A stretch of 64,000 nucleotides of DNA from Bacillota bacterium (GTDB taxonomy: Bacteria; Bacillota; Dethiobacteria; DTU022), in NCBI GenBank assembly GCA_040751775.1, contig JBFMGD010000003.1:19201-83200 (forward strand), written 5' to 3'. Shown in pieces: positions 16,395 through 25,674 of this stretch. The position numbers and the translations under genes were made by a program. A model generated the notes under the pieces. It did not search any database and was not told where the DNA came from. It worked only from the letters and a program-made list of their open reading frames with translations. Each line of letters opens with the position of its first letter. Within the stretch, counting starts at the first letter, position 1.

Positions 16395-17417
16395 TTGGGC
16401 GAGCCAAATTTTGCGTTGCCCGAAGCAAAGCAGGTTCTTTACCAGCCTGCCGGCGGCCGGCGCCTATTTTCCGATCCCGACGCGGATGCCGCCAGGGAAT
16501 ATTTTCATAACAAAAGTAGAAAAAAGGTGGATAAAACTACCACCGCCGCGGAAGCGGTGGCCCGGCTCGTTTCGGACGGGGATTATCTCGGGGTGGGCGG
16601 CTTTGGCGCGAACCGGATCCCGACGGCGATTCTACATGAAATTGTGCGCCAGCACAAGAAGAACTTGGGCCTGGCCGGGCATACCGCGACCCACGATTTT
16701 CAAATTTTAGTGGCGGGGCGATGCGTCAACCGCTGCGATGTGGCTTACGTGATCGGACTGGAAGCGCGGGGGCTGTCCAAGCGGGCCCGCCAGGCGGTGG
16801 AAAGCGGCGAGATCGAGATCACCGAGTGGACCAACGCCGCCCTGGCCTGGCGCTACAAGGCGGCGGCGATGGGGGTTTCTTTTATCCCGGCGCGCTGTAT
16901 GCTCGGGACGGATACCGTGCAGTACAGCGCCGCTGTCGAGATGGAGTGCCCCTTTACCGGCAAGAAATACCTGGCGCTGCCGGCTCTCTACCCGGATGTG
17001 GGTGTGATTCACGTGCACCGCGCCGATGTCTACGGCAACTGCCAGATCGACGGGATCATGGTCTCCGATTTCGACCTGGCCCGCGCCTCCAAGCGGCTTA
17101 TTATCACCACCGAGCAGCTGATTCCGGAGGAAATGATCCGCCGCGCGCCCGACCGTACCGCAATCCCTTATTACCTCGTGGACGCGGTGGTGGAGGTGCC
17201 GTACGGCTCCTATCCCGGGAACATGGCCTACATGTATTACAGTGACGAAGAACACCTGCAGGAATGGCTCCAGGCGGAGCAGGATCCGAAGACGCTGGCT
17301 GACTTCATCGAGCGCAATATTTACGGTGTGCCCGATTTTTGGAGCTACCTGATGTTAAACGGCGGCCCCGCCCGCCTGGCCGGGCTGCGCCACCAGGAAA
17401 CGCTTCTGGAAAAATGA
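16395..17417 (+). CDS. Family I CoA-transferase, alpha subunit (GctA-like)
   Basis: AEAVARLVSDGDYLGVGGF, ALYPDVGVIHVHRAD.YGN, VDAVVEVPYGSYP; paired with the B subunit. Confidence 0.85.
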   Translation: MGEPNFALPEAKQVLYQPAGGRRLFSDPDADAAREYFHNKSRKKVDKTTTAAEAVARLVSDGDYLGVGGFGANRIPTAILHEIVRQHKKNLGLAGHTATHDFQILVAGRCVNRCDVAYVIGLEARGLSKRARQAVESGEIEITEWTNAALAWRYKAAAMGVSFIPARCMLGTDTVQYSAAVEMECPFTGKKYLALPALYPDVGVIHVHRADVYGNCQIDGIMVSDFDLARASKRLIITTEQLIPEEMIRRAPDRTAIPYYLVDAVVEVPYGSYPGNMAYMYYSDEEHLQEWLQAEQDPKTLADFIERNIYGVPDFWSYLMLNGGPARLAGLRHQETLLEK

Positions 17418-17504
17418 CGGCCCGGCAGTCAGCAGCCACAATTCAGGAGTTTAACAATAAGAGAAGAGGCGCAATAGCAACAAGGTATAGGAGGAAATAC
17501 GTAA

Positions 17505-18275
17505 ATGAGCTACAACCGGATGGAGCTGATGATCAGCCTGGCATCGCGCTTCCTGGAAGATGAAAGCATCGTTGTGGTCGGCACCGGCGCACCGTGCGCC
17601 GCGGCCATGCTGGCTCAAACCCTCTACGCTCCCAATCTGATGATCATGTTTGAAGCGGGCGGGATCGGGCCGCTGCTGCCCTCGATGCCGATTTCCGTGG
17701 GTGATTCGCGCACCTTTTACCGCGCGCTGGCTGCCAGCAGCATGCCCGAAATCATGGAGACCTGCCAGAGGGGCATGGTCGACTATACTTTTTTAGGCGG
17801 TGCGCAAATAGATATGTACGGCAACATTAACTCCACGATGATCGGCAGCGATTACAGCCGCCCAAAAGTGCGCTTTCCCGGCAGCGGCGGCGCGAATGAT
17901 CTTGCTTCGTTCTGCTGGCGCACGATGATGATCACCGTTCAGGACGCGCGGCGCTTTACCAACAAGATTGACTTTATTACCTCGCCGGGTTACCTGACCG
18001 GAAAAGGCGCCCGCGAGGCGGCGGGCCTGCCGCCGGGCAGCGGCCCCTATAAGGTGATTACCGATCTAGGTGTGCTCGGTTTCGACGCTGAAACCAAGAG
18101 GATGCAGGTAGAAAGCATTCACCCGGGCATTACCCGGGAGCAGATCGCGGCAAACACCGGTTTCGAGCTGCTCTGGTCCCCCGATCTGGATACCAGCGAG
18201 CCGCCGACGGAGCAGGAGCTGGCCGTGCTGCGGGAAAAGGTGGATCCGTACCGCTATATTATCGGGCGCAGTTAA
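17505..18275 (+). CDS. Family I CoA-transferase, beta subunit (GctB-like)
   Basis: VVVGTGAP, catalytic-Glu region FEAGG, FLGGAQIDMYGNINST, PGSGGANDLAS, VITDLGV. Confidence 0.87.
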   Translation: MSYNRMELMISLASRFLEDESIVVVGTGAPCAAAMLAQTLYAPNLMIMFEAGGIGPLLPSMPISVGDSRTFYRALAASSMPEIMETCQRGMVDYTFLGGAQIDMYGNINSTMIGSDYSRPKVRFPGSGGANDLASFCWRTMMITVQDARRFTNKIDFITSPGYLTGKGAREAAGLPPGSGPYKVITDLGVLGFDAETKRMQVESIHPGITREQIAANTGFELLWSPDLDTSEPPTEQELAVLREKVDPYRYIIGRS

Positions 18276-18299
18276 ATCGCTTCACCTGTGAGGTGGAAT

Positions 18300-19481
18300 A
18301 TGGCCAAAACAGTAGTTGTCGGTTACGCCCGAACCCCTTTCGGGCGTTTCCTCGGTTCATTCAAGGATCTGCCGGCTGTGGACCTTGGGGCCGCGGCCGT
18401 GCGTGAGGCGCTGCGGCGGGCCGGAGTGCCCGGCGAGGCGCTGGACAACGTATTTCTGGGCATGGTCGTGCAGGCCGGCGCGGGGCAGATCCCCTCCCGC
18501 CAGGCTACGATCAAGGCCGATCTGCCCGCAACGGTGCCTTCCGATACGATCAATAAGGTCTGCGCCTCCGGCCTGCGGGCCGTCAACTTAAGTGATGCCT
18601 TAATCCGGGCCGGCGAGGCCGGCGCGGTTGTGGCCGGGGGTATGGAGAACATGAGCGCAGCGCCGTACCTGCTGCCCCGGGCCAGGAACGGCTGCCGCAT
18701 GGGTGACGCTCCCCTGGTGGACGGCATGATTAAAGACGGACTCTGGTGCCCGTTCAACAATGTGCACATGGGAGTGTACGGGAGCCGCATCCCGGCCGAG
18801 CACGGCATCACCCGGGCCGAGATGGACCGGTGGGCGCTGCGCAGCCACCAGCGCGCCGTGGCCGCTATGGACAGCGGCCGCCTGGCGGAAGAGATTGTCG
18901 CGGTGGAGGTGCCTCAACCCAAGGGCGAACCGCTGCCGGTGAAGCATGATGAACTGCCGCGGCGGGATACCTCCCTGGAGCAGCTGGCCTCGCTTGCTCC
19001 CGCGTTTGAAGCGGCGGGGTTGGTCACCGCGGGCAACGCGCCCGGCATCAGTGACGGCGCGGCGGCACTGGTGTTGACCGACGCGGAACGAGCCCGGCAG
19101 TGGGGCCTGGAACCGCTCGCTGAAATTGTCTCCCAGGGAGCGGTCTCCCTGGAGCCGCCCTATATCGCCACGGTCCCTCATGCCGCGGCTGAGCTGGCTC
19201 TGCAAAAAGCCGGCCTCAGCGCGTCGCGGATGGACTTAATCGAAGTAAACGAAGCTTTTGCCGCGGTGGCCCTGACCAGTATGAAACTGGGCTGCTGGGA
19301 TGAAGAGAAGGTCAATGTCAACGGCGGAGCGGTGGCCCTGGGTCACCCGATCGGCGCCAGCGGGGCGCGGATCCTGATCACGTTGATCGCCGAGCTGCGC
19401 CGGCGCGGCGGCGGCTACGGCCTGGCTGCGATCTGCAGCGGCGCGGCCCAGGGAGAAGCCACCGTGGTGAAGGTAGGTTAA
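18300..19481 (+). CDS. Acetyl-CoA C-acetyltransferase (thiolase, MmgA-like)
   Basis: TINKVCASG, NEAFA, GHPIGASGAR, AICSGAAQG. Confidence 0.93.
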   Translation: MAKTVVVGYARTPFGRFLGSFKDLPAVDLGAAAVREALRRAGVPGEALDNVFLGMVVQAGAGQIPSRQATIKADLPATVPSDTINKVCASGLRAVNLSDALIRAGEAGAVVAGGMENMSAAPYLLPRARNGCRMGDAPLVDGMIKDGLWCPFNNVHMGVYGSRIPAEHGITRAEMDRWALRSHQRAVAAMDSGRLAEEIVAVEVPQPKGEPLPVKHDELPRRDTSLEQLASLAPAFEAAGLVTAGNAPGISDGAAALVLTDAERARQWGLEPLAEIVSQGAVSLEPPYIATVPHAAAELALQKAGLSASRMDLIEVNEAFAAVALTSMKLGCWDEEKVNVNGGAVALGHPIGASGARILITLIAELRRRGGGYGLAAICSGAAQGEATVVKVG

Positions 19482-19506
19482 AACAAAGAATCGGGAGAGC
19501 GGGTTT

Positions 19507-20637
19507 ATGGATTTTAGCTTATCGCCGCGTCACGCGGCGCGGCGGGATGAGTTCAGGGATTTTGCCGAACGGGAGATCCAGCCGGCTGAAAAAGACTATC
19601 CCCGGGAGAACCTGCGGCGGATGGCCGGCCGCGGCTACCTGGGCTTGCCGATCCCGCGGCAGTGGGGCGGGCAGGGAGAGGATTTTCTTACATATATCCT
19701 GTTGATTGAAGAGATTTCCCGGGTTTGCGCCTCCACGGGAGTAATCCTGGCGGTGCATACCTCGGTGGGCAGCTTCCCCCTGCTCTATTACGGCACCGCC
19801 AGTCAAAAAGAGCTCTACCTGCGCCGCCTCGCGAGCGGCGAGATGATCGGCGCGTTCGCCCTTACCGAGACGCAGGCCGGTTCGGATGCCGCCGCTCTGG
19901 GCGCCACGGCGCGGCGTGTGAACGGCGGCTATGTGCTGAACGGGTGCAAGCTTTTCATCACTAGCGGGGGAGAGGCGGATCTCTACACCGTATTTGCCAC
20001 GGTGGATCGCTCCCTGAGCAGCAGAGGGATCTGCGCCTTTCTTGTCGAAAAAGGTACGCCGGGGTTATCCGCCGGGCCGCGCGAACGGAAAATGGGGCTG
20101 CACGGCTCCGCCACCACCGAGCTCAGGTTTGATGAGATGCTTCTGCCTCCGGCAAACCTCCTGGGCAGCGAAGGCGGCGGCTTCCGGATCGCGCTGTCCC
20201 TTTTGGAAGGCGGCCGCATCGGCATCGCCGCCCAGGGGTTGGGCCTGGCGAGGGCGGCCCTGGAAAGCACCGCCGCTCATATCGCGGCAAGCGGGCAGTG
20301 CGGCACCGCGGCCGGCCAGGCGGCTCGCTTCATCCTGGCCGATCTATTCACGCGGCTCGAAGCGGCCAGGCTTCTCGTTTGGCGCGCCGCCTGCTTCAAG
20401 GATGCCGGACGGCCCTGCACCCGGGAAGCGTCGATGGCCAAGCAGTACGCCACCGACCTTGCGGTGCAGGCGTCGGCCCGCTGTCTCGATCTGTGGGCTG
20501 CGGCGGGGATGAGCCTGGATAATCCGCTGACCCGCTATTTTTGTGATGCCAAGGTCACCCAGATTTACGAGGGTTCGAACCAGATCCAGCGTATCGTGAT
20601 CGCCAGGGAGCTGCTGAAAAGTTTGGCTAAAATCTAA
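19507..20637 (+). CDS. Acyl-CoA dehydrogenase-family protein with degenerate trans-FAD motifs
   Basis: FALTETQAGSDA, KLFITSG, IYEGSNQIQR retained; RxQFG and QxxGGxG replaced by SGQCG and DLWAAAG. Confidence 0.85.
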   Translation: MDFSLSPRHAARRDEFRDFAEREIQPAEKDYPRENLRRMAGRGYLGLPIPRQWGGQGEDFLTYILLIEEISRVCASTGVILAVHTSVGSFPLLYYGTASQKELYLRRLASGEMIGAFALTETQAGSDAAALGATARRVNGGYVLNGCKLFITSGGEADLYTVFATVDRSLSSRGICAFLVEKGTPGLSAGPRERKMGLHGSATTELRFDEMLLPPANLLGSEGGGFRIALSLLEGGRIGIAAQGLGLARAALESTAAHIAASGQCGTAAGQAARFILADLFTRLEAARLLVWRAACFKDAGRPCTREASMAKQYATDLAVQASARCLDLWAAAGMSLDNPLTRYFCDAKVTQIYEGSNQIQRIVIARELLKSLAKI

Positions 20638-20660
20638 GTTAAGCGGGAGGTAGGGAGCAC

Positions 20661-21803
20661 ATGGATTTCATTCTCACCGAAGAGCAGGAGATGACCCGGC
20701 AGATGGTGCGCGGCTTTGCCGAAAAAGAGGTAAAGCCCGGCGCCGAGGAGAGGGATGATCAGGAGAGGTTTTCCCGCGAGATATTTGATAAAATGGGCCG
20801 CCTCGGTATCACCGGCATACCCTGGCCGGAAGAGTACGGCGGCGGCGGCTGTGATTTCATCAGCTACGTAATCGCCGTGGAAGAACTTTCCCGGGTCGAC
20901 GCTTCGGCCGGCACCACGCTTTCGGCGCATATCTCCCTGGCCGGCTGGCCGATCTTCAAATACGGCAGCGAAGCGCAAAAGAAAAAATATCTTGAACCGA
21001 TGGCCCTCGGGGAAAAACTGGGCGCCTACGGTTTAACGGAAGCGACCGCCGGCACTGATGCGGCGGGTTTGCGAACCACGGCCGTGCTTGACGGAGACAG
21101 CTACGTGTTAAACGGCAACAAGATCTTTATCACCAACGCCGGCGAGGCGGAAATATACATCGTTTTCGCCGTAACCGACAAGGAGAAGAAGACTAGAGGA
21201 ATCAGCGCCTTTATCGTGGAGAAGGGCACCCCCGGCTTTGCCTTCGGGAAAAAAGAACGCAAGATGGGGCTGCGCTCTTCGCCGACTTTGGAGCTCATTT
21301 TTGACAACTGCCGCGTGCCGCGGGAGAACATACTCGGGCAGGAAGGCGATGGTTTTAAAATCGCCATGAGCACCTTGGACGGCGGGCGGAACGGGATTGC
21401 CGCCCAGGCGGTGGGGATCGCCCAGGGAGCGCTGGAAGAGGCGGCCGCGTACGCGCAAAGCCGCGAGCAGTTCGGGCAGCCGATCGCGAACTTTCAGGCG
21501 ATCTCGTTTATGCTGGCCGATATGGCCACCAAGGTGGAAGCGGCGCGCCTGCTGACCTACCAGGCCGCATTCCTGGAAAGCCGCGGCTTGCCCTACGGTA
21601 AAGCTTCGGCGATGGCGAAGCTGTTTGCCTCGGAAGCGGCGATGGAGATTACCACGAACGCGGTGCAGATATTCGGCGGCTACGGTTACACCCGCGACTA
21701 TCCCGTGGAGCGCTTTATGCGCGACGCCAAAATTACGCAGATCTATGAAGGGACCAGTGAAGTACAGCGCCTGGTTATTTCCCGTTACGTGTTAAAAGGG
21801 TAG
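20661..21803 (+). CDS. Short/branched-chain acyl-CoA dehydrogenase (butyryl-CoA dehydrogenase-like)
   Basis: [52 protein letters not shown]. Confidence 0.93.
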
Positions 21804-21925
21804 GCGGCCGGTTTATCCTTTTTATCAGGCGAAGCCGGTCCGGCACAGCGGCGGTTCCGGATGAACGGCAGCCGCCGCGGCAATTTGTCGGCCAACATTG
21901 CGGAAACGAAAGGAGACAGCGTGGT

Positions 21926-22453
21926 ATGGGCGATCAAAAACGGGGTCTGGTCATGGTTTATACCGGTGACGGCAAGGGTAAAACCACGGCGGCTGTCGGT
22001 CAGGCGCTGCGGGCGCTCGGGCACGGATACCGTATCTATATGATTCATTTTATGAAAGGGCGCGATTACGGCGAATTTCTCGTCTCGGCCTACCTGCCCA
22101 ACTGGACGGTGGTCCGGACGGGGCGGGATGAATTTGTCGACCGGGAAAACCCGGCCCAGGTTGATATCGAACTGGCCCGGGACGGTTTTGAGCGGGCCAA
22201 GAAGGCGATCTTCAGCGGTGATTACGACCTGGTCGTGCTGGATGAAATCAACGTGGCCGTGGACTACGGTTTGATTCCCGAAGCGGAACTGCTGGCGCTG
22301 CTGGCGGAAAAACCGGCGCCGATAAGCTTAATCCTGACCGGACGCGGCGCTTCACCGGAACTGGTAAAACGGGCAGACATGGTCAGCGAGGTGCTGGCAA
22401 TTAAACATCATTATGACAGCGGCGTGCCGGACCGCAAGGGAATAGAGTATTAA
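21926..22453 (+). CDS. cobO: Cob(I)alamin adenosyltransferase (CobO/BtuR type)
   Basis: VYTGDGKGKTTAA, VVLDEINVA, LILTGR, terminal GIEY. Confidence 0.92.
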   Translation: MGDQKRGLVMVYTGDGKGKTTAAVGQALRALGHGYRIYMIHFMKGRDYGEFLVSAYLPNWTVVRTGRDEFVDRENPAQVDIELARDGFERAKKAIFSGDYDLVVLDEINVAVDYGLIPEAELLALLAEKPAPISLILTGRGASPELVKRADMVSEVLAIKHHYDSGVPDRKGIEY

Positions 22454-22519
22454 GGGAGAGAATGCAGGATTCAGAATTTGGCATAACAAAAGACGGTGCA
22501 TGGCCATAATTTTGACTTA

Positions 22520-22555
22520 GTTCCAATGGGCACGGCATGCCGTGCCCATTGGAAC
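22520..22555. repeat. Perfect 36-bp palindrome with GGGCACGGCATGCCGTGCCC core (REP-like)
   Basis: GTTCCAATGGGCACGGCATGCCGTGCCCATTGGAAC equals its own reverse complement; intergenic between cobO and meaB. Confidence 0.85.
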
Positions 22556-22576
22556 AGATAGCAATGAGGTGTTTAT

Positions 22577-23530
22577 ATGCAGCAGTTGGTCGAAGAGTTG
22601 CTTGGCGGCAGCAGGCGCGCCCTGGCCCGCTTGATTTCGATCGTGGAAAACAGCGACCCGCGGAAGTATGCGATCCTGAAGGAGCTCTACCCCCATACCG
22701 GCAGGGCTTACGTGCTCGGCGTGACCGGGGCCCCCGGTTCAGGGAAGAGTTCCCTGGTAGACCGGCTGCTGCAGCTTGCCCGGCGGGACGGCTTGACGGC
22801 GGGCGTGATCGCCGTCGATCCGACCAGCCCCTTCTCCGGCGGCGCGATCCTCGGTGACCGGATCAGAATGCAGGATCACGCGCTTGATCCGGGCGTGTTC
22901 ATCCGCAGCATGGGCACCCGGGGCAGCCTGGGAGGCCTCTCCCGGGCTGCCGGGGAGGCTGTCCAGGTCCTGGATGCTTTCGGCAAAGATCTAATCCTGG
23001 TGGAGACCGTGGGGGTCGGACAATCGGAGATCGATATCGTGAAAACCGCCGATACGACGGTCGTGGTTTTGACTCCCGCCGGGGGTGACAGTGTCCAGAC
23101 CCTGAAGGCCGGGATCATGGAGATCGCCGATATTTTCGTGATTAATAAAGCCGACCTGCCCGGCGCGGAACGAACCGCAGCTGAGGTAAACGGTATGCTC
23201 GAGATGAAGGGTGGCTACGCCTGGCGCCCGCCGGTCGTAGCCACGGTCTCGACGCGTGATCAAGGGATCGAGGCGCTCTGGCAGGTGCTTGCGGATCACC
23301 GCTCTTACCTGGAGGAAAGCGGGCGGCTGCAGGCGGTGCGCAGAGAACGGGTGCGGCGGGAGCTGACCGAACAGGTGGAGCACCTGGTGAAAAGCGGTGT
23401 CTGGGATCGAATCAAGACGCTGGCCGCCCTGGAAAATTTACTGGAAGATATCGCCCGGCGCCGGGCTGATCCGTACAGCACGGCCCGCAAGCTGCTTGAA
23501 AAGATCAATTTCCCTCTTGCTGAAGAGTGA
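22577..23530 (+). CDS. meaB: MeaB/ArgK-family GTPase chaperone of B12 mutase
   Basis: GAPGSGKSS, AVDPTSPFSGGAILGDRIRM, ETVGVGQSE, NKAD. Confidence 0.95.
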   Translation: MQQLVEELLGGSRRALARLISIVENSDPRKYAILKELYPHTGRAYVLGVTGAPGSGKSSLVDRLLQLARRDGLTAGVIAVDPTSPFSGGAILGDRIRMQDHALDPGVFIRSMGTRGSLGGLSRAAGEAVQVLDAFGKDLILVETVGVGQSEIDIVKTADTTVVVLTPAGGDSVQTLKAGIMEIADIFVINKADLPGAERTAAEVNGMLEMKGGYAWRPPVVATVSTRDQGIEALWQVLADHRSYLEESGRLQAVRRERVRRELTEQVEHLVKSGVWDRIKTLAALENLLEDIARRRADPYSTARKLLEKINFPLAEE

Positions 23531-23544
23531 AGGAGATGTGAGCG

Positions 23545-25209
23545 ATGGGAGAAGAGGACTTTACACTTAAGATCAGGGAAGAGCAACAACTGTGGCGGGA
23601 ACAGCAGGAGCAACAGCAAGAGCGCCCGGAACCTTTTACCACGGTTTCCGGCGAGCCGGTGAACGATCTTTATACACCGGCGGACATTGCCGGGTTGGAT
23701 TACCTGAAAGATCTGGGGTTCCCCGGCTGCTATCCCTATACCCGGGGGGTGCAAAGCAACATGTACCGGGGCCGGCTCTGGACCATGCGCCAGTTTTCCG
23801 GCTTCGGAGACGCTTTTGACTCCAACCGGCGCTACCGCTACCTGCTGGAGCAGGGCCAAACTGGTTTAAGTGTGGCCTTCGATATGCCCACAATCATGGG
23901 CTACGACTCCGATCACCCCCGCGCACTGGGTGAGGTGGGCCGCTGCGGGGTGGCGATCGATTCCCTGGCTGATATGGAGATACTTTTTGACCGGATTCCA
24001 CTCGACCAGATTACCACATCGATGACCATAAACGGGCCTGCCGCCATCCTCTGGTGCATCTACCTCGCGAATGCGGAAAAACAGGGTGTACCATTGGAAA
24101 AAGTGGGCGGCACCATCCAGAACGACATCTTGAAGGAATATATCGCCCAGAAATCGTGGATTTTCCCGCCGGAGCCTTCGATGCGCCTGATTACCGATAT
24201 CTTTGCGTTTGCCGCGCGCCGTGTCCCCCGCTGGAATACCGTCAGCATCAGCGGTTACCACATCCGGGAAGCGGGCTCCACTGCGGTGCAGGAGCTGGCC
24301 TTCACCCTGGCGGACGGGTTCGCTTACGTGGAAGCGGGGATCAAAGCCGGCCTGGATGTGGATACTTTCGCGCCGCGGCTCTCTTTTTTCTTTAACGCTC
24401 ATCTTGATTTCTTTGAAGAGATCTGTAAATACCGCGCGGCCCGGCGCATCTGGGCGCGCCGCATGAAAGAGCGTTACGGGGCCAGGGATCCCCGTTCGTG
24501 GATGCTGCGCTTCCACACCCAGACCGCGGGCTGCAGCCTTACCGCCCAGGAACCGGAAAACAATATCGTCCGGACAACGCTCGAAGCGCTGGCGGCGGTG
24601 ATGGGCGGGACCCAGTCGCTGCACACCAATTCCATGGACGAAGTGCTGGCCCTGCCTACCGAAAAAGCCGTGAAGATCGCCCTGCGCACACAGCAGATTA
24701 TCGCCTATGAAAGCGGCGTGGCCAACACGATCGATCCCCTGGCCGGCTCCTACTTCGTGGAAGCGTTGACCGGCCGGATGGAAGCGGCGGCTGAAGACTA
24801 TTTCCGCCGCATCGAAGAGCTCGGCGGAGTGCTCGCCGCCATTGACTGCGGCTTTTTTCAGCAGGAGATCGCCGATGCCGCCTACAGCTACCAGCAAGCC
24901 GTCGATCGCGGCGAACGGGTCGTGGTGGGGATGAACCGTTTTGCCGGCGGGGAGCTGCCGCAAATCGAACTGCTGAGAATCGATCCGGCGGTGGAGCGAA
25001 AACAGGTCGAGCGGCTGCAAGCGCTGCGTGAAAAGCGTGACGCAATCGCGGTGGCGGGCAGCCTCGAGCGGTTAAAGAAAGCGGCGGCCGGTCCGGAAAA
25101 CCTGGTTCCTTATATCCTGGAAGCGGTGAAACTCTACGCCACCGAAGGGGAAATCGTGGCGGCGCTGAAAGAAGTCTTCGGGGAATACCGGGAGAAGCCG
25201 CTTTTTTAA
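23545..25209 (+). CDS. icmA: Acyl-CoA mutase large subunit, isobutyryl-CoA mutase type (IcmA-like)
   Basis: [10 protein letters not shown] (Phe, where MCM has Tyr) and [13 protein letters not shown] (Gln, where MCM has Arg); [15 protein letters not shown]; no fused B12 domain. Confidence 0.82.
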
Positions 25210-25210
25210 G

Positions 25211-25245
25211 AAGTGAGAAGTGGGAAGTGAGATGTGGAAAGTGGG
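25211..25245 (+). repeat. Five tandem imperfect heptamers (consensus AAGTGRG)
   Basis: AAGTGAG-AAGTGGG-AAGTGAG-ATGTGGA-AAGTGGG between icmA stop and icmB RBS. Confidence 0.75.
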
Positions 25246-25266
25246 AAAAGTAAGGAGGTTTTTTCG

Positions 25267-25674
25267 GTGGAGCGGAAAATTAGGGTACTGGTGGCGAAGC
25301 CGGGCCTGGACGGGCATGACCGCGGGGCCAAGGTAGTGGCGCGGGCATTGCGGGATGCGGGGATGGAGGTAATTTACACCGGACTGCACCAGACGCCCGA
25401 GCAGGTAGCCGAAGCGGCGCTGCAGGAAGATGTGCATGTCGTCGGTTTGAGCATACTATCCGGCGCGCACATGACCCTGGTGCCCAGAATCAGAGCACTG
25501 CTCGATGAAAGGCAGCTGCGCGATGTCCTGCTGCTGGTCGGCGGCATCATCCCCGCGGATGAAGCCGCAGAACTTAAGAGCAAGGGCTACGCGGCCGGAG
25601 TGTTTACGCCGGGGGAGCCGCTCGATGCCATTATTAATTTCATTCGCGCGCAAGCAAGTCCAGCCGAAGTATAA
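25267..25674 (+). CDS. icmB: Cobalamin-binding small subunit of the mutase (IcmB-like)
   Basis: [14 protein letters not shown] (DxHxxG), [15 protein letters not shown]; GTG 25267 after AAGGAGG. Confidence 0.88.

Follow-up and report, generated by a model that had tools for sequence, protein, structure and literature searches.

The window, i.e., the whole stretch of 64,000 nucleotides (nt) from contig JBFMGD010000003.1 of a Bacillota bacterium (GCA_040751775.1), carries two adjacent genes of acyl-CoA dehydrogenases (ACADs), referred to here as ACAD1 and ACAD2. The first of these proteins retains the contacts which a subunit makes with its own flavin adenine dinucleotide (FAD), and it has lost the contacts which reach the FAD of the neighboring subunit. 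The second protein is intact. The genes are parts of an operon with the subunits of an acyl-CoA mutase.

The two genes and their flavin contacts

The ACAD1 and ACAD2 proteins are 46% identical, and each contains the three ACAD domains of Pfam (Acyl-CoA_dh_N/M/1) above the cut-off. The 23-nt spacer between the genes includes a ribosome-binding site, and the genes are predicted to be co-transcribed because the intergenic gap is too small for a terminator. The PDB matches of ACAD1 are 5lnx (E 1e-110) and 5ol2 (E 1e-105). The AlphaFold2 (AF2) monomer model of ACAD1, built on the family alignment, presents a confident ACAD fold with a predicted local distance difference test score (pLDDT) of 92.3, which drops at the flavin loop (121–130) and at the former Arg loop (261–270). 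Foldseek with this model returned Bacillus subtilis MmgC (5lnx) as the nearest structure (TM 0.94, 50% identity), and also Clostridioides difficile Bcd (46%). The catalytic Glu occupies the position known from the short-chain (SCAD) and medium-chain (MCAD) acyl-CoA dehydrogenases (Y-E-G), which is Glu355 in ACAD1 and Glu363 in ACAD2 (IYEGT). An assignment of the substrates was attempted with the NCBIfam models, and no equivalog cut-off was reached by ACAD1, ACAD2, or the mutase.

The FAD of ACADs is located where the two subunits of a tight dimer meet. Its isoalloxazine lies in one subunit, together with the substrate and the catalytic Glu, and the other subunit clamps the ADP-ribose end of the FAD through the Arg loop and the Q-x-x-G-G loop. 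An earlier sequence-only reading of this locus had started from such a two-subunit site, correctly so in the light of the cryo-electron microscopy of human SCAD. In that structure the same-subunit (cis) FAD contacts are F152, L154, S155, T187, G160, S161, and E396, and the contacts from the adjacent monomer (trans) are R297, Q365, and G369 (PMC13027082). The single change Q365H in human SCAD disrupts FAD binding or tetramerization (PMC13027082). The SCAD numbering used below was carried over by alignment to rat SCAD 1jqi (mature numbering + 24).

The first set of contacts is kept in ACAD1, where the ORF contains the motifs LTETQAGSD, KLFIT, and YEGSNQIQR, as the sequence-only reading had stated. 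Its second claim, the loss of both motifs which contact the neighboring FAD, holds as well, and the equivalents of R297, Q365, and G369 are Ser, Asp, and Ala in ACAD1. In ACAD2 they are Arg, Gln, and Gly, and both the ORF coordinates and the alignment agree with its description as an intact gene 23 bp downstream. The remnant of the Arg loop in ACAD1, AASGQCGTAAGQ, is 2 amino acids (aa) shorter than the matching loop of ACAD2. In homotetrameric enzymes of the Bcd/SCAD/MmgC type every subunit gives the trans FAD contacts; this was found for ACAD2 and not for ACAD1. The positions of the motifs are listed in Table 1. A frameshift or sequencing error behind the odd segments of ACAD1 was considered and rejected, as no other frame yields related sequence and 106 clusters show the same pattern.

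Table 1. Features of the ACAD1–ACAD2 locus, with numbering from the first letter of the window unless another locus is named
Feature	Position	Strand	Evidence or remark
ACAD1, MmgC/Bcd-like acyl-CoA dehydrogenase, 376 aa	19507..20637	+	ORF, Pfam, PDB, AF2, Foldseek, family analysis
ACAD1 6-aa deletion between N-terminal helices (QPA-EKD-YP)	19579..19602	+	alignment vs ACAD2
ACAD1 LTETQAGSD, aa 119–127; same-subunit isoalloxazine/ribityl contacts (SCAD L154, S155, G160, S161)	19861..19887	+	invariant in family
ACAD1 KLFITSG, aa 148–154; same-subunit flavin contact (SCAD T187)	19948..19968	+	Thr in 104/106
ACAD1 remnant of R-x-QFG-x-PI-x-x-FQ loop, AASGQCGTAAGQ, aa 260–271	20284..20319	+	Arg of SCAD R297 gone
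ACAD1 CLDLWAAAGMS, aa 326–336, in place of QIFGGYGY	20482..20514	+	SCAD Q365 replaced by Asp
ACAD1 YFCDAK; Arg of RDAK (SCAD R383) replaced by Cys	20536..20553	+	Cys in 87% of fully degenerate family
ACAD1 IYEGSNQIQR, aa 353–362, catalytic Glu355 (codon 20569–20571)	20563..20592	+	Glu in 106/106
Spacer, 23 nt, GGGAGG at 20645–20650 before ACAD2 ATG	20638..20660	+	
ACAD2, intact Bcd-type acyl-CoA dehydrogenase, 380 aa	20661..21803	+	ORF, alignment, Pfam
ACAD2 Arg loop, aa 267–279	21459–21497		matches AASGQCGTAAGQ of ACAD1
ACAD2 counterpart of CLDLWAAAGMS, aa 335–344	21663–21692		intact
ACAD2 IYEGT with catalytic Glu	21741–21770	+	
CoA-transferase subunits A (16395–17417) and B (17505–18275), operon start	16395..18275	+	Pfam CoA_trans, synteny
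Thiolase (thl)	18288..19481	+	Pfam, synteny
Corrinoid adenosyltransferase (ATR)	21926–22453	+	Pfam, synteny
MeaB GTPase	22577–23530	+	Pfam, synteny
Acyl-CoA mutase large subunit, isobutyryl-CoA-mutase-like	23545–25209	+	Pfam, PDB, NCBIfam, synteny
B12-binding mutase small subunit	25234–25674	+	Pfam, synteny
G009-lineage ACAD2 beside ACAD1	L029:10776–11912 (G009); L123:6001–7146		second locus from a second strain, same operon

Conservation and selection in the ACAD1 family

The search of 5.8 billion proteins with ACAD1 returned more than 100 clusters of 58–73% identity and 365–382 aa. The column statistics compare 106 representatives of the ACAD1 family with 119 ACAD2-type sequences, and the loss pattern of ACAD1 is common to the 106 aligned clusters. 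The columns of F152, L154, G160, S161, R272, and E392 are conserved in 106/106 of the family, A163 in 105/106, and T155, T187, and D269 in 104/106 each. These values agree with the claim that the cis motifs are retained. The catalytic Glu is present in all of the 106 ACAD1-family and all of the 119 ACAD2-type sequences.

The opposite is observed for the trans segments. Their mean column entropy in the ACAD1 family is 2.23 bits vs 0.95 elsewhere (Mann-Whitney p = 7.5e-10), and the most variable stretches are SCAD positions 292–308 and 369–376. The column of R297 reaches 3.43 bits and lies in the most variable stretch of the family, that of G369 reaches 3.25 bits, and the Q365 column is Asp in 92% of the sequences. 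In the ACAD2-type sequences the trans segments are more conserved than the remainder (0.20 vs 0.38 bits), and the R, Q, and G are invariant. Further changes accompany the loss in the fully degenerate ACAD1s, i.e., those in which both loops are lost, as opposed to the half-degenerate ones, which keep the Arg loop. E379 is lost in the fully degenerate family, the Cys which replaces R383 changed together with the Arg loop, and the 6-aa N-terminal deletion is fixed in all 106 fully degenerate sequences and absent from the half-degenerate ones. The selective loss of the trans contacts is a conserved feature and not decay.

The former FAD clamp of the fully degenerate ACAD1s (aa 326–349, 20482–20553) has also gained Cys residues. 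They are found at positions 326 (92%), 330 (60%, otherwise mostly Trp), and 346 (87%), and Cys is present at all of 304, 326, 330, and 346 in 46 of the 106 family members. Their role may lie in packing, in a metal site, or in a redox feature, all of which are conceivable.

The selection on the genes was assessed in coding sequences extracted from 20 syntenic genomes, in which the ratio of nonsynonymous to synonymous substitution rates (dN/dS) was calculated by the Nei-Gojobori method. The ACAD1 ORF is intact in 20/20 of the extracted loci and, with 366–381 aa, in every genome examined. The dN/dS of ACAD1 is 0.09 for the closest pair (dS 0.40) and 0.18–0.29 for pairs with dS near 1. The corresponding values are 0.03–0.12 for ACAD2 and 0.09–0.2 for thl, MeaB, and ATR. 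The evolution of ACAD1 is therefore about 2–4 times faster than that of ACAD2, in agreement with the tree. Because its dN/dS is 0.09–0.29, ACAD1 is a functional gene under purifying selection. The earlier suggestion to look in orthologous pairs for a shared selective loss, maintained under purifying selection, thus receives a positive answer, in 106 clusters.

Two alternative explanations meet these data directly. The first describes ACAD1 as a decaying duplicate on its way to a pseudogene, or as an artefact of sequencing or assembly. It could appeal to the faster evolution of ACAD1 relative to its neighbors and to the gene at the same (A1) position in Tepidibacillus marianensis, which is split in two frames. 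It is rejected by the intact ORFs and the dN/dS values, which rule out a pseudogene, and by the identical pattern in clusters from independent assemblies, which speaks against an artefact. The second describes ACAD1 as a non-redox paralogue, i.e., an acyl-CoA-binding, regulatory, or scaffolding subunit which no longer needs the full FAD complement. The faster evolution would suit such a subunit, and a second tandem ACAD pair of the source genome has a member without the catalytic Glu, so non-catalytic ACAD paralogues exist in the lineage. The Glu, the substrate Arg and Asp, and all the isoalloxazine and ribityl contacts are, however, invariant in 104–106 of the 106 sequences, as is typical of a working active site, which makes a non-redox role improbable.

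Ancestry, linkage, and complementary loss

The ACADs found upstream of ACAD2 at the same operon position form a series. The gene is fully intact in one genome (G039, family f3). In family f5 it is half-degenerate, with the Arg loop kept and QIFGGYG changed to S-L-M-G-A-R-G, and in family f1, which includes the window, both loops are lost. The half- and fully degenerate ACAD1s form one clade with a support of 100 in the Shimodaira–Hasegawa-like approximate likelihood ratio test (SH-aLRT), and ACAD2 forms a separate clade. The fully degenerate ACAD1s are placed on a long stem (0.42), also with a support of 100. This order points to the adenosine (Q-x-x-GG) loop as the first loss and the pyrophosphate Arg loop as the second. 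Beyond the taxonomic order of these genomes, the mutase operons of Alicyclobacillus sp. ALC3, Tepidibacillus infernus, and two metagenome-assembled genomes (MAGs) contain tandems of an intact A1-like and an intact A2-like ACAD. Because such intact tandems occur there, the ancestral state is predicted to be two intact enzymes side by side. A recent tandem duplication of ACAD2 was considered as the origin of ACAD1 and rejected, since ACAD1 falls into an MmgC-like lineage of its own and ACAD2-like genes also follow the intact members of that lineage.

In the T. marianensis chromosome (L089:4840-5975), the A1-position ACAD matches as two overlapping pieces in different frames. This gene, located upstream of an intact ACAD2-like gene, is apparently a pseudogene caused by a frameshift, and the strain is a cultured one.

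The linkage was counted in 73 genomes of the family, of which 49 have an ACAD1-type gene. In 45 of these 49, ACAD2 lies immediately 3′ of ACAD1 (median gap about 47 nt), and in 2 of the 49 the pair is interrupted only by contig ends. The reverse does not hold, and ACAD2 is found without ACAD1 and thiolase, which are truly absent, in the operon of five genomes (G059, G073, G001, G032, and G036). Across the genomes, the thiolase follows ACAD1 in gains as well as in losses. ACAD1 without ACAD2 is seen in one genome only, a 95%-complete MAG (G047). The dependency appears to be one-way, of ACAD1 on ACAD2, because ACAD2 occurs alone and ACAD1 does so only once. In the loci L132, L133, and L137 (G059, G073, and G001), thl-ACAD1 was secondarily lost and ACAD2 and ATR were retained beside purD; the mutase is also lost in G059 and G001.

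The linkage also bears on the possibility that the partner of ACAD1 is another ACAD paralogue of the genome, either instead of ACAD2 or in addition to it. Candidates are available, as the source genome has 13 ACAD-like matches, and G047 and G049 each encode further ACADs which are 48–52% identical to ACAD2. Across about 50 genomes, however, only ACAD2 is syntenic with ACAD1, and the complementary loss described below sits in ACAD2 itself. Another partner is thus a slim prospect.

An example of the complementary loss is the ACAD2 which stands beside ACAD1 in the G009 lineage. Of 182 otherwise invariant columns of the ACAD2 orthologues, this protein deviates at 24; within families f1 and f5 the remaining orthologues deviate at 0–5 of these columns, and the f3 orthologue L027 at 18. 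Among the changes, YGG replaces YEG (catalytic Glu), FVN replaces FIT (flavin Thr), NGS replaces GGR (substrate Arg), and GSA replaces GTD, and the Arg-loop motif and QIFGGYG are unchanged. These features are shared by four variant sequences from separate assemblies. Between two strains the dN/dS of this ACAD2 is 0.33, which is below 1 (binomial p = 4.6e-4), with 0.18 for ACAD1 and 0.11 for the mutase. By its sequence, the G009-lineage ACAD2 looks as a dedicated β subunit should, because it is Glu-less, keeps exactly the parts which are missing in ACAD1, and is still selected.

The genes around the pair follow the order purD-(CoA-transferase A/B)-thl-ACAD1-ACAD2-ATR-MeaB-mutase large-mutase small. 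This operon is kept in 20 relatives and in about 28 named MAG loci, with labels such as "Clostridia bacterium DTU022", "Syntrophomonadaceae bacterium" (soda-lake sediment), and "Bacillota bacterium" (digester). DTU022 is assigned to the class Dethiobacteria (PMC11932165). The large subunit of the mutase is closest to HcmA (4r3u), and the segments aligned to 4r3u are RQFSGF, SVAFD, and IAQKSW. It has Phe and Ala at the positions of Ile and Asp in HcmA, and the Gln is kept. We take Phe/Gln at the substrate positions to be the signature of an isobutyryl-CoA mutase (ICM), as opposed to Tyr/Arg in methylmalonyl-CoA mutase and Ile/Asp in 2-hydroxyisobutyryl-CoA mutase. The domain set of the two-subunit ICM is present (large subunit, B12 small subunit, MeaB, and adenosyltransferase), with scores below every NCBIfam ICM equivalog cut-off. 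The operon (16395–25674) contains a thiolase and two ACADs and no gene of an enoyl-CoA hydratase or a 3-hydroxyacyl-CoA dehydrogenase. Because both are missing, these steps must be encoded outside the operon.

The second tandem ACAD pair of the source genome is located outside the window (G000:C4:46777-49117; L039:6763-9124). Its first member is intact, and the second has lost the catalytic Glu (IYEGT to ISSAGT) and carries altered trans loops (RTMGGKPINKFQ and DIHGSLGY). Downstream of the pair are EtfB, EtfA, and a 4-hydroxybutyryl-CoA-dehydratase-like (HpaB-family) gene, and on its 5′ side are a BCCT transporter, a beta-keto-acid cleavage enzyme, a sigma-54 activator, and a PanE-like reductase.

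The proposed heteromer and related enzymes

The reading which is favoured here, and which is judged to be somewhat probable, is a one-sided heteromer. The Arg and Q-x-x-GG loops of ACAD2 would supply what is missing from the FAD site of ACAD1, and ACAD2 would still be capable of forming a homotetramer. ACAD1, which keeps the first contact set and discarded the clamp, would require a clamp-bearing dimer partner for full cofactor loading; this partner would be ACAD2, whose gene follows after 23 nt on the same mRNA. In the ACAD1:ACAD2 dimer the site of ACAD1 would then be complete, and the site of ACAD2, which faces the degenerate loops of ACAD1, would probably be FAD-poor. ACAD2 may also self-assemble as an ordinary tetramer of the butyryl-CoA-dehydrogenase type, which would explain why it stays intact and occurs without ACAD1. 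The putative pathway combines the B12-dependent isomerization of isobutyryl-CoA and butyryl-CoA with beta-oxidation (CoA-transferase, mutase, ACADs, and thiolase). The physical association of the subunits, the FAD stoichiometry, the site that turns over, and the substrates are what we infer from the sequences.

Several observations weigh against this heteromer. ACAD2 is not β-like, as the protein of the window and 118 of its 119 relatives are fully intact, and it is more conserved than ACAD1 (73–91% vs 58–71% identity). Judging from its motifs, ACAD2 is self-sufficient, and nothing in ACAD2 itself demands a partner. The argument from complementary loss concerns one lineage only: a search through the 120 closest homologues of ACAD2 for further lineages without the Glu gave the G009 cluster alone. 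Plain decay alone can also yield a picture similar to that of G009. An example is the solo ACAD2 of G012 (L040:8672-9802), which is N-terminally truncated and long-branched, has lost the Glu (YMG) and changed FIT to FTI, and keeps the trans motifs. It lies between purD and the adenosyltransferase, with no mutase downstream, in a genome without ACAD1, and it is probably a decaying operon remnant. In G049 (L067:7245-9849, G049/G089), the operon is broken right after ACAD1, which is followed by a GntR-like gene and an MttB-like (trimethylamine-methyltransferase) gene, and ACAD2-ATR-MeaB-mutase is located on another contig. In the G047 MAG (L136), which belongs to the same genus as G049, neither ACAD2 nor the mutase was found, and the ACAD1 is intact with a dN/dS of 0.11 vs G049. 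Finally, the new conserved Asp and Cys/Trp residues of ACAD1 could in principle form an alternative FAD-holding surface in a homomer.

The last point leads to the alternative in which ACAD1 is homomeric. Its FAD would be held by the same-subunit contacts only or by the new surface of Asp328, Cys326, Cys/Trp330, and Cys346, and ACAD2 would be a second enzyme with another substrate preference. This arrangement accords with the intact tandems of Alicyclobacillus sp. ALC3 and T. infernus, from which separate enzymes appear ancestral, and with the conserved, family-specific residues gained at the former clamp; ACAD1 and ACAD2 can moreover be unlinked in one genus (g4), and G047 may have the one without the other. 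The hypervariable and shortened Arg loop (3.4 bits) nevertheless resembles a loss more than a new function. Poor FAD retention would be expected of a homomeric ACAD1, because Q365H alone disrupts FAD binding or tetramerization in SCAD. Such an enzyme would also leave unexplained both the near-absolute adjacency of the genes and the G009 ACAD2, which is Glu-less, under selection, and perfect in its trans motifs. The homomer is therefore regarded as unlikely, although it is to be kept in mind. As for the obligate heteromer proposed in the sequence-only reading, its heteromeric part is favoured by the conserved loss, the adjacency, the one-way dependency, and the G009 loss, while the word "obligate" is challenged by G047.

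The one-sided heteromer would have a wider meaning. Heterotetrameric ACADs are considered peculiar to Actinobacteria and Proteobacteria which degrade steroids and dicarboxylates. If the reading is true, a second, unrelated origin in short-chain ACADs of uncultured anaerobes shows that the splitting of the two-subunit FAD site recurs in evolution, and living lineages record the evolution of an obligate heteromer from two homomers. The extant series, from intact through half- and fully degenerate to partner loss, is a testable case of how the dependence between paralogues arises. There are also practical aspects. DTU022/Dethiobacteria are common in biogas reactors and soda-lake sediments, and their annotation and metabolic models count the pair as two independent "acyl-CoA dehydrogenases". 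The expression of ACAD1 alone in a heterologous host would probably fail.

The closest relatives of ACAD1 and ACAD2 in sequence and fold are the Bcd of Clostridia, the MmgC of B. subtilis, and the mitochondrial SCAD, with which they share the position of the Glu and the cis motifs. ACAD2 is an ordinary member of this group. ACAD1 differs in that these homotetramers have the cis and trans contacts in every subunit, whereas in ACAD1 none of the three trans contacts is left, the Arg loop is shorter by 2 aa, and the 6-aa N-terminal deletion is present. At the level of the operon, the isobutyryl-CoA mutase cluster of Syntrophothermus lipocalidus (Slip_0757-0760) has the same module of mutase subunits, adenosyltransferase, and MeaB, and the passages of its description that were consulted make no mention of a degenerate/intact ACAD pair beside the mutase cluster of isobutyrate degraders (PMC5017805); here thl-ACAD1-ACAD2 are in the operon. 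The earlier claim that such a pair is not known among the short-chain ACADs of Firmicutes agrees with the literature search, which returned heteromeric ACADs only from the steroid and dicarboxylate catabolism of Actinobacteria and Proteobacteria, none of them short-chain Firmicute enzymes.

Two such groups can be compared with the pair. The PimC/PimD of Rhodopseudomonas palustris is a two-gene ACAD with a large and a small subunit, thought to be a heterotetramer (bioRxiv 10.1101/2025.02.21.639450). PimC/PimD and their homologues act on dicarboxylic substrates and belong to another clade than ACAD1 and ACAD2; the pimC and pimD models score 114–115 bits on ACAD2 vs cut-offs above 620 and have no ACAD1 match at 1e-20.

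The second group comprises the α2β2 ACADs of mycobacterial cholesterol catabolism, the existence of which had been rightly stated in the sequence-only reading (PMC11153573). The isoalloxazine pocket, the substrate site, and the catalytic Glu of ChsE4-ChsE5 and ChsE1-ChsE2 belong to the α subunit, and the ADP-ribose is bound by the β subunit (PMC11153573). ChsE4-ChsE5 (FadE26-27), ChsE1-ChsE2 (FadE28-29), and IpdE1-IpdE2 are encoded by adjacent ACAD genes in one operon, as here. ACAD1 has the α-type half-set of these enzymes, with the cis contacts and the Glu kept and the trans contacts lost, and the β-type half-set is seen in the G009-lineage ACAD2 only and not in the ACAD2 of the window. Unlike in the ChsE/IpdE enzymes, the partner ACAD2 is normally complete, and the degeneration is one-sided. 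The pathways also differ, since the substrates there are steroid side chains or rings and here isobutyrate or butyrate in anaerobic Dethiobacteria/DTU022. In addition, the pair belongs to the short-chain Bcd/MmgC branch, with 5lnx, 5ol2, and SCAD as the best PDB matches, and the NCBIfam IpdE2 model scores 78 bits on ACAD2 vs a cut-off of 450, with no match of ACAD1 at 1e-20. The membership in this branch implies an origin independent of ChsE/IpdE. With slightly less than even confidence, it is proposed that the heteromeric ACADs arose convergently in anaerobic Bacillota, with the intermediates still extant: a self-sufficient Bcd-type ACAD2 would double as the clamp, its paralogue would have lost the clamp in two steps, and one genus would have begun the complementary loss which leads to a true α2β2 enzyme. 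If the heteromer holds, the pair would be an independent and asymmetric analogue of the mycobacterial α2β2 ACADs.

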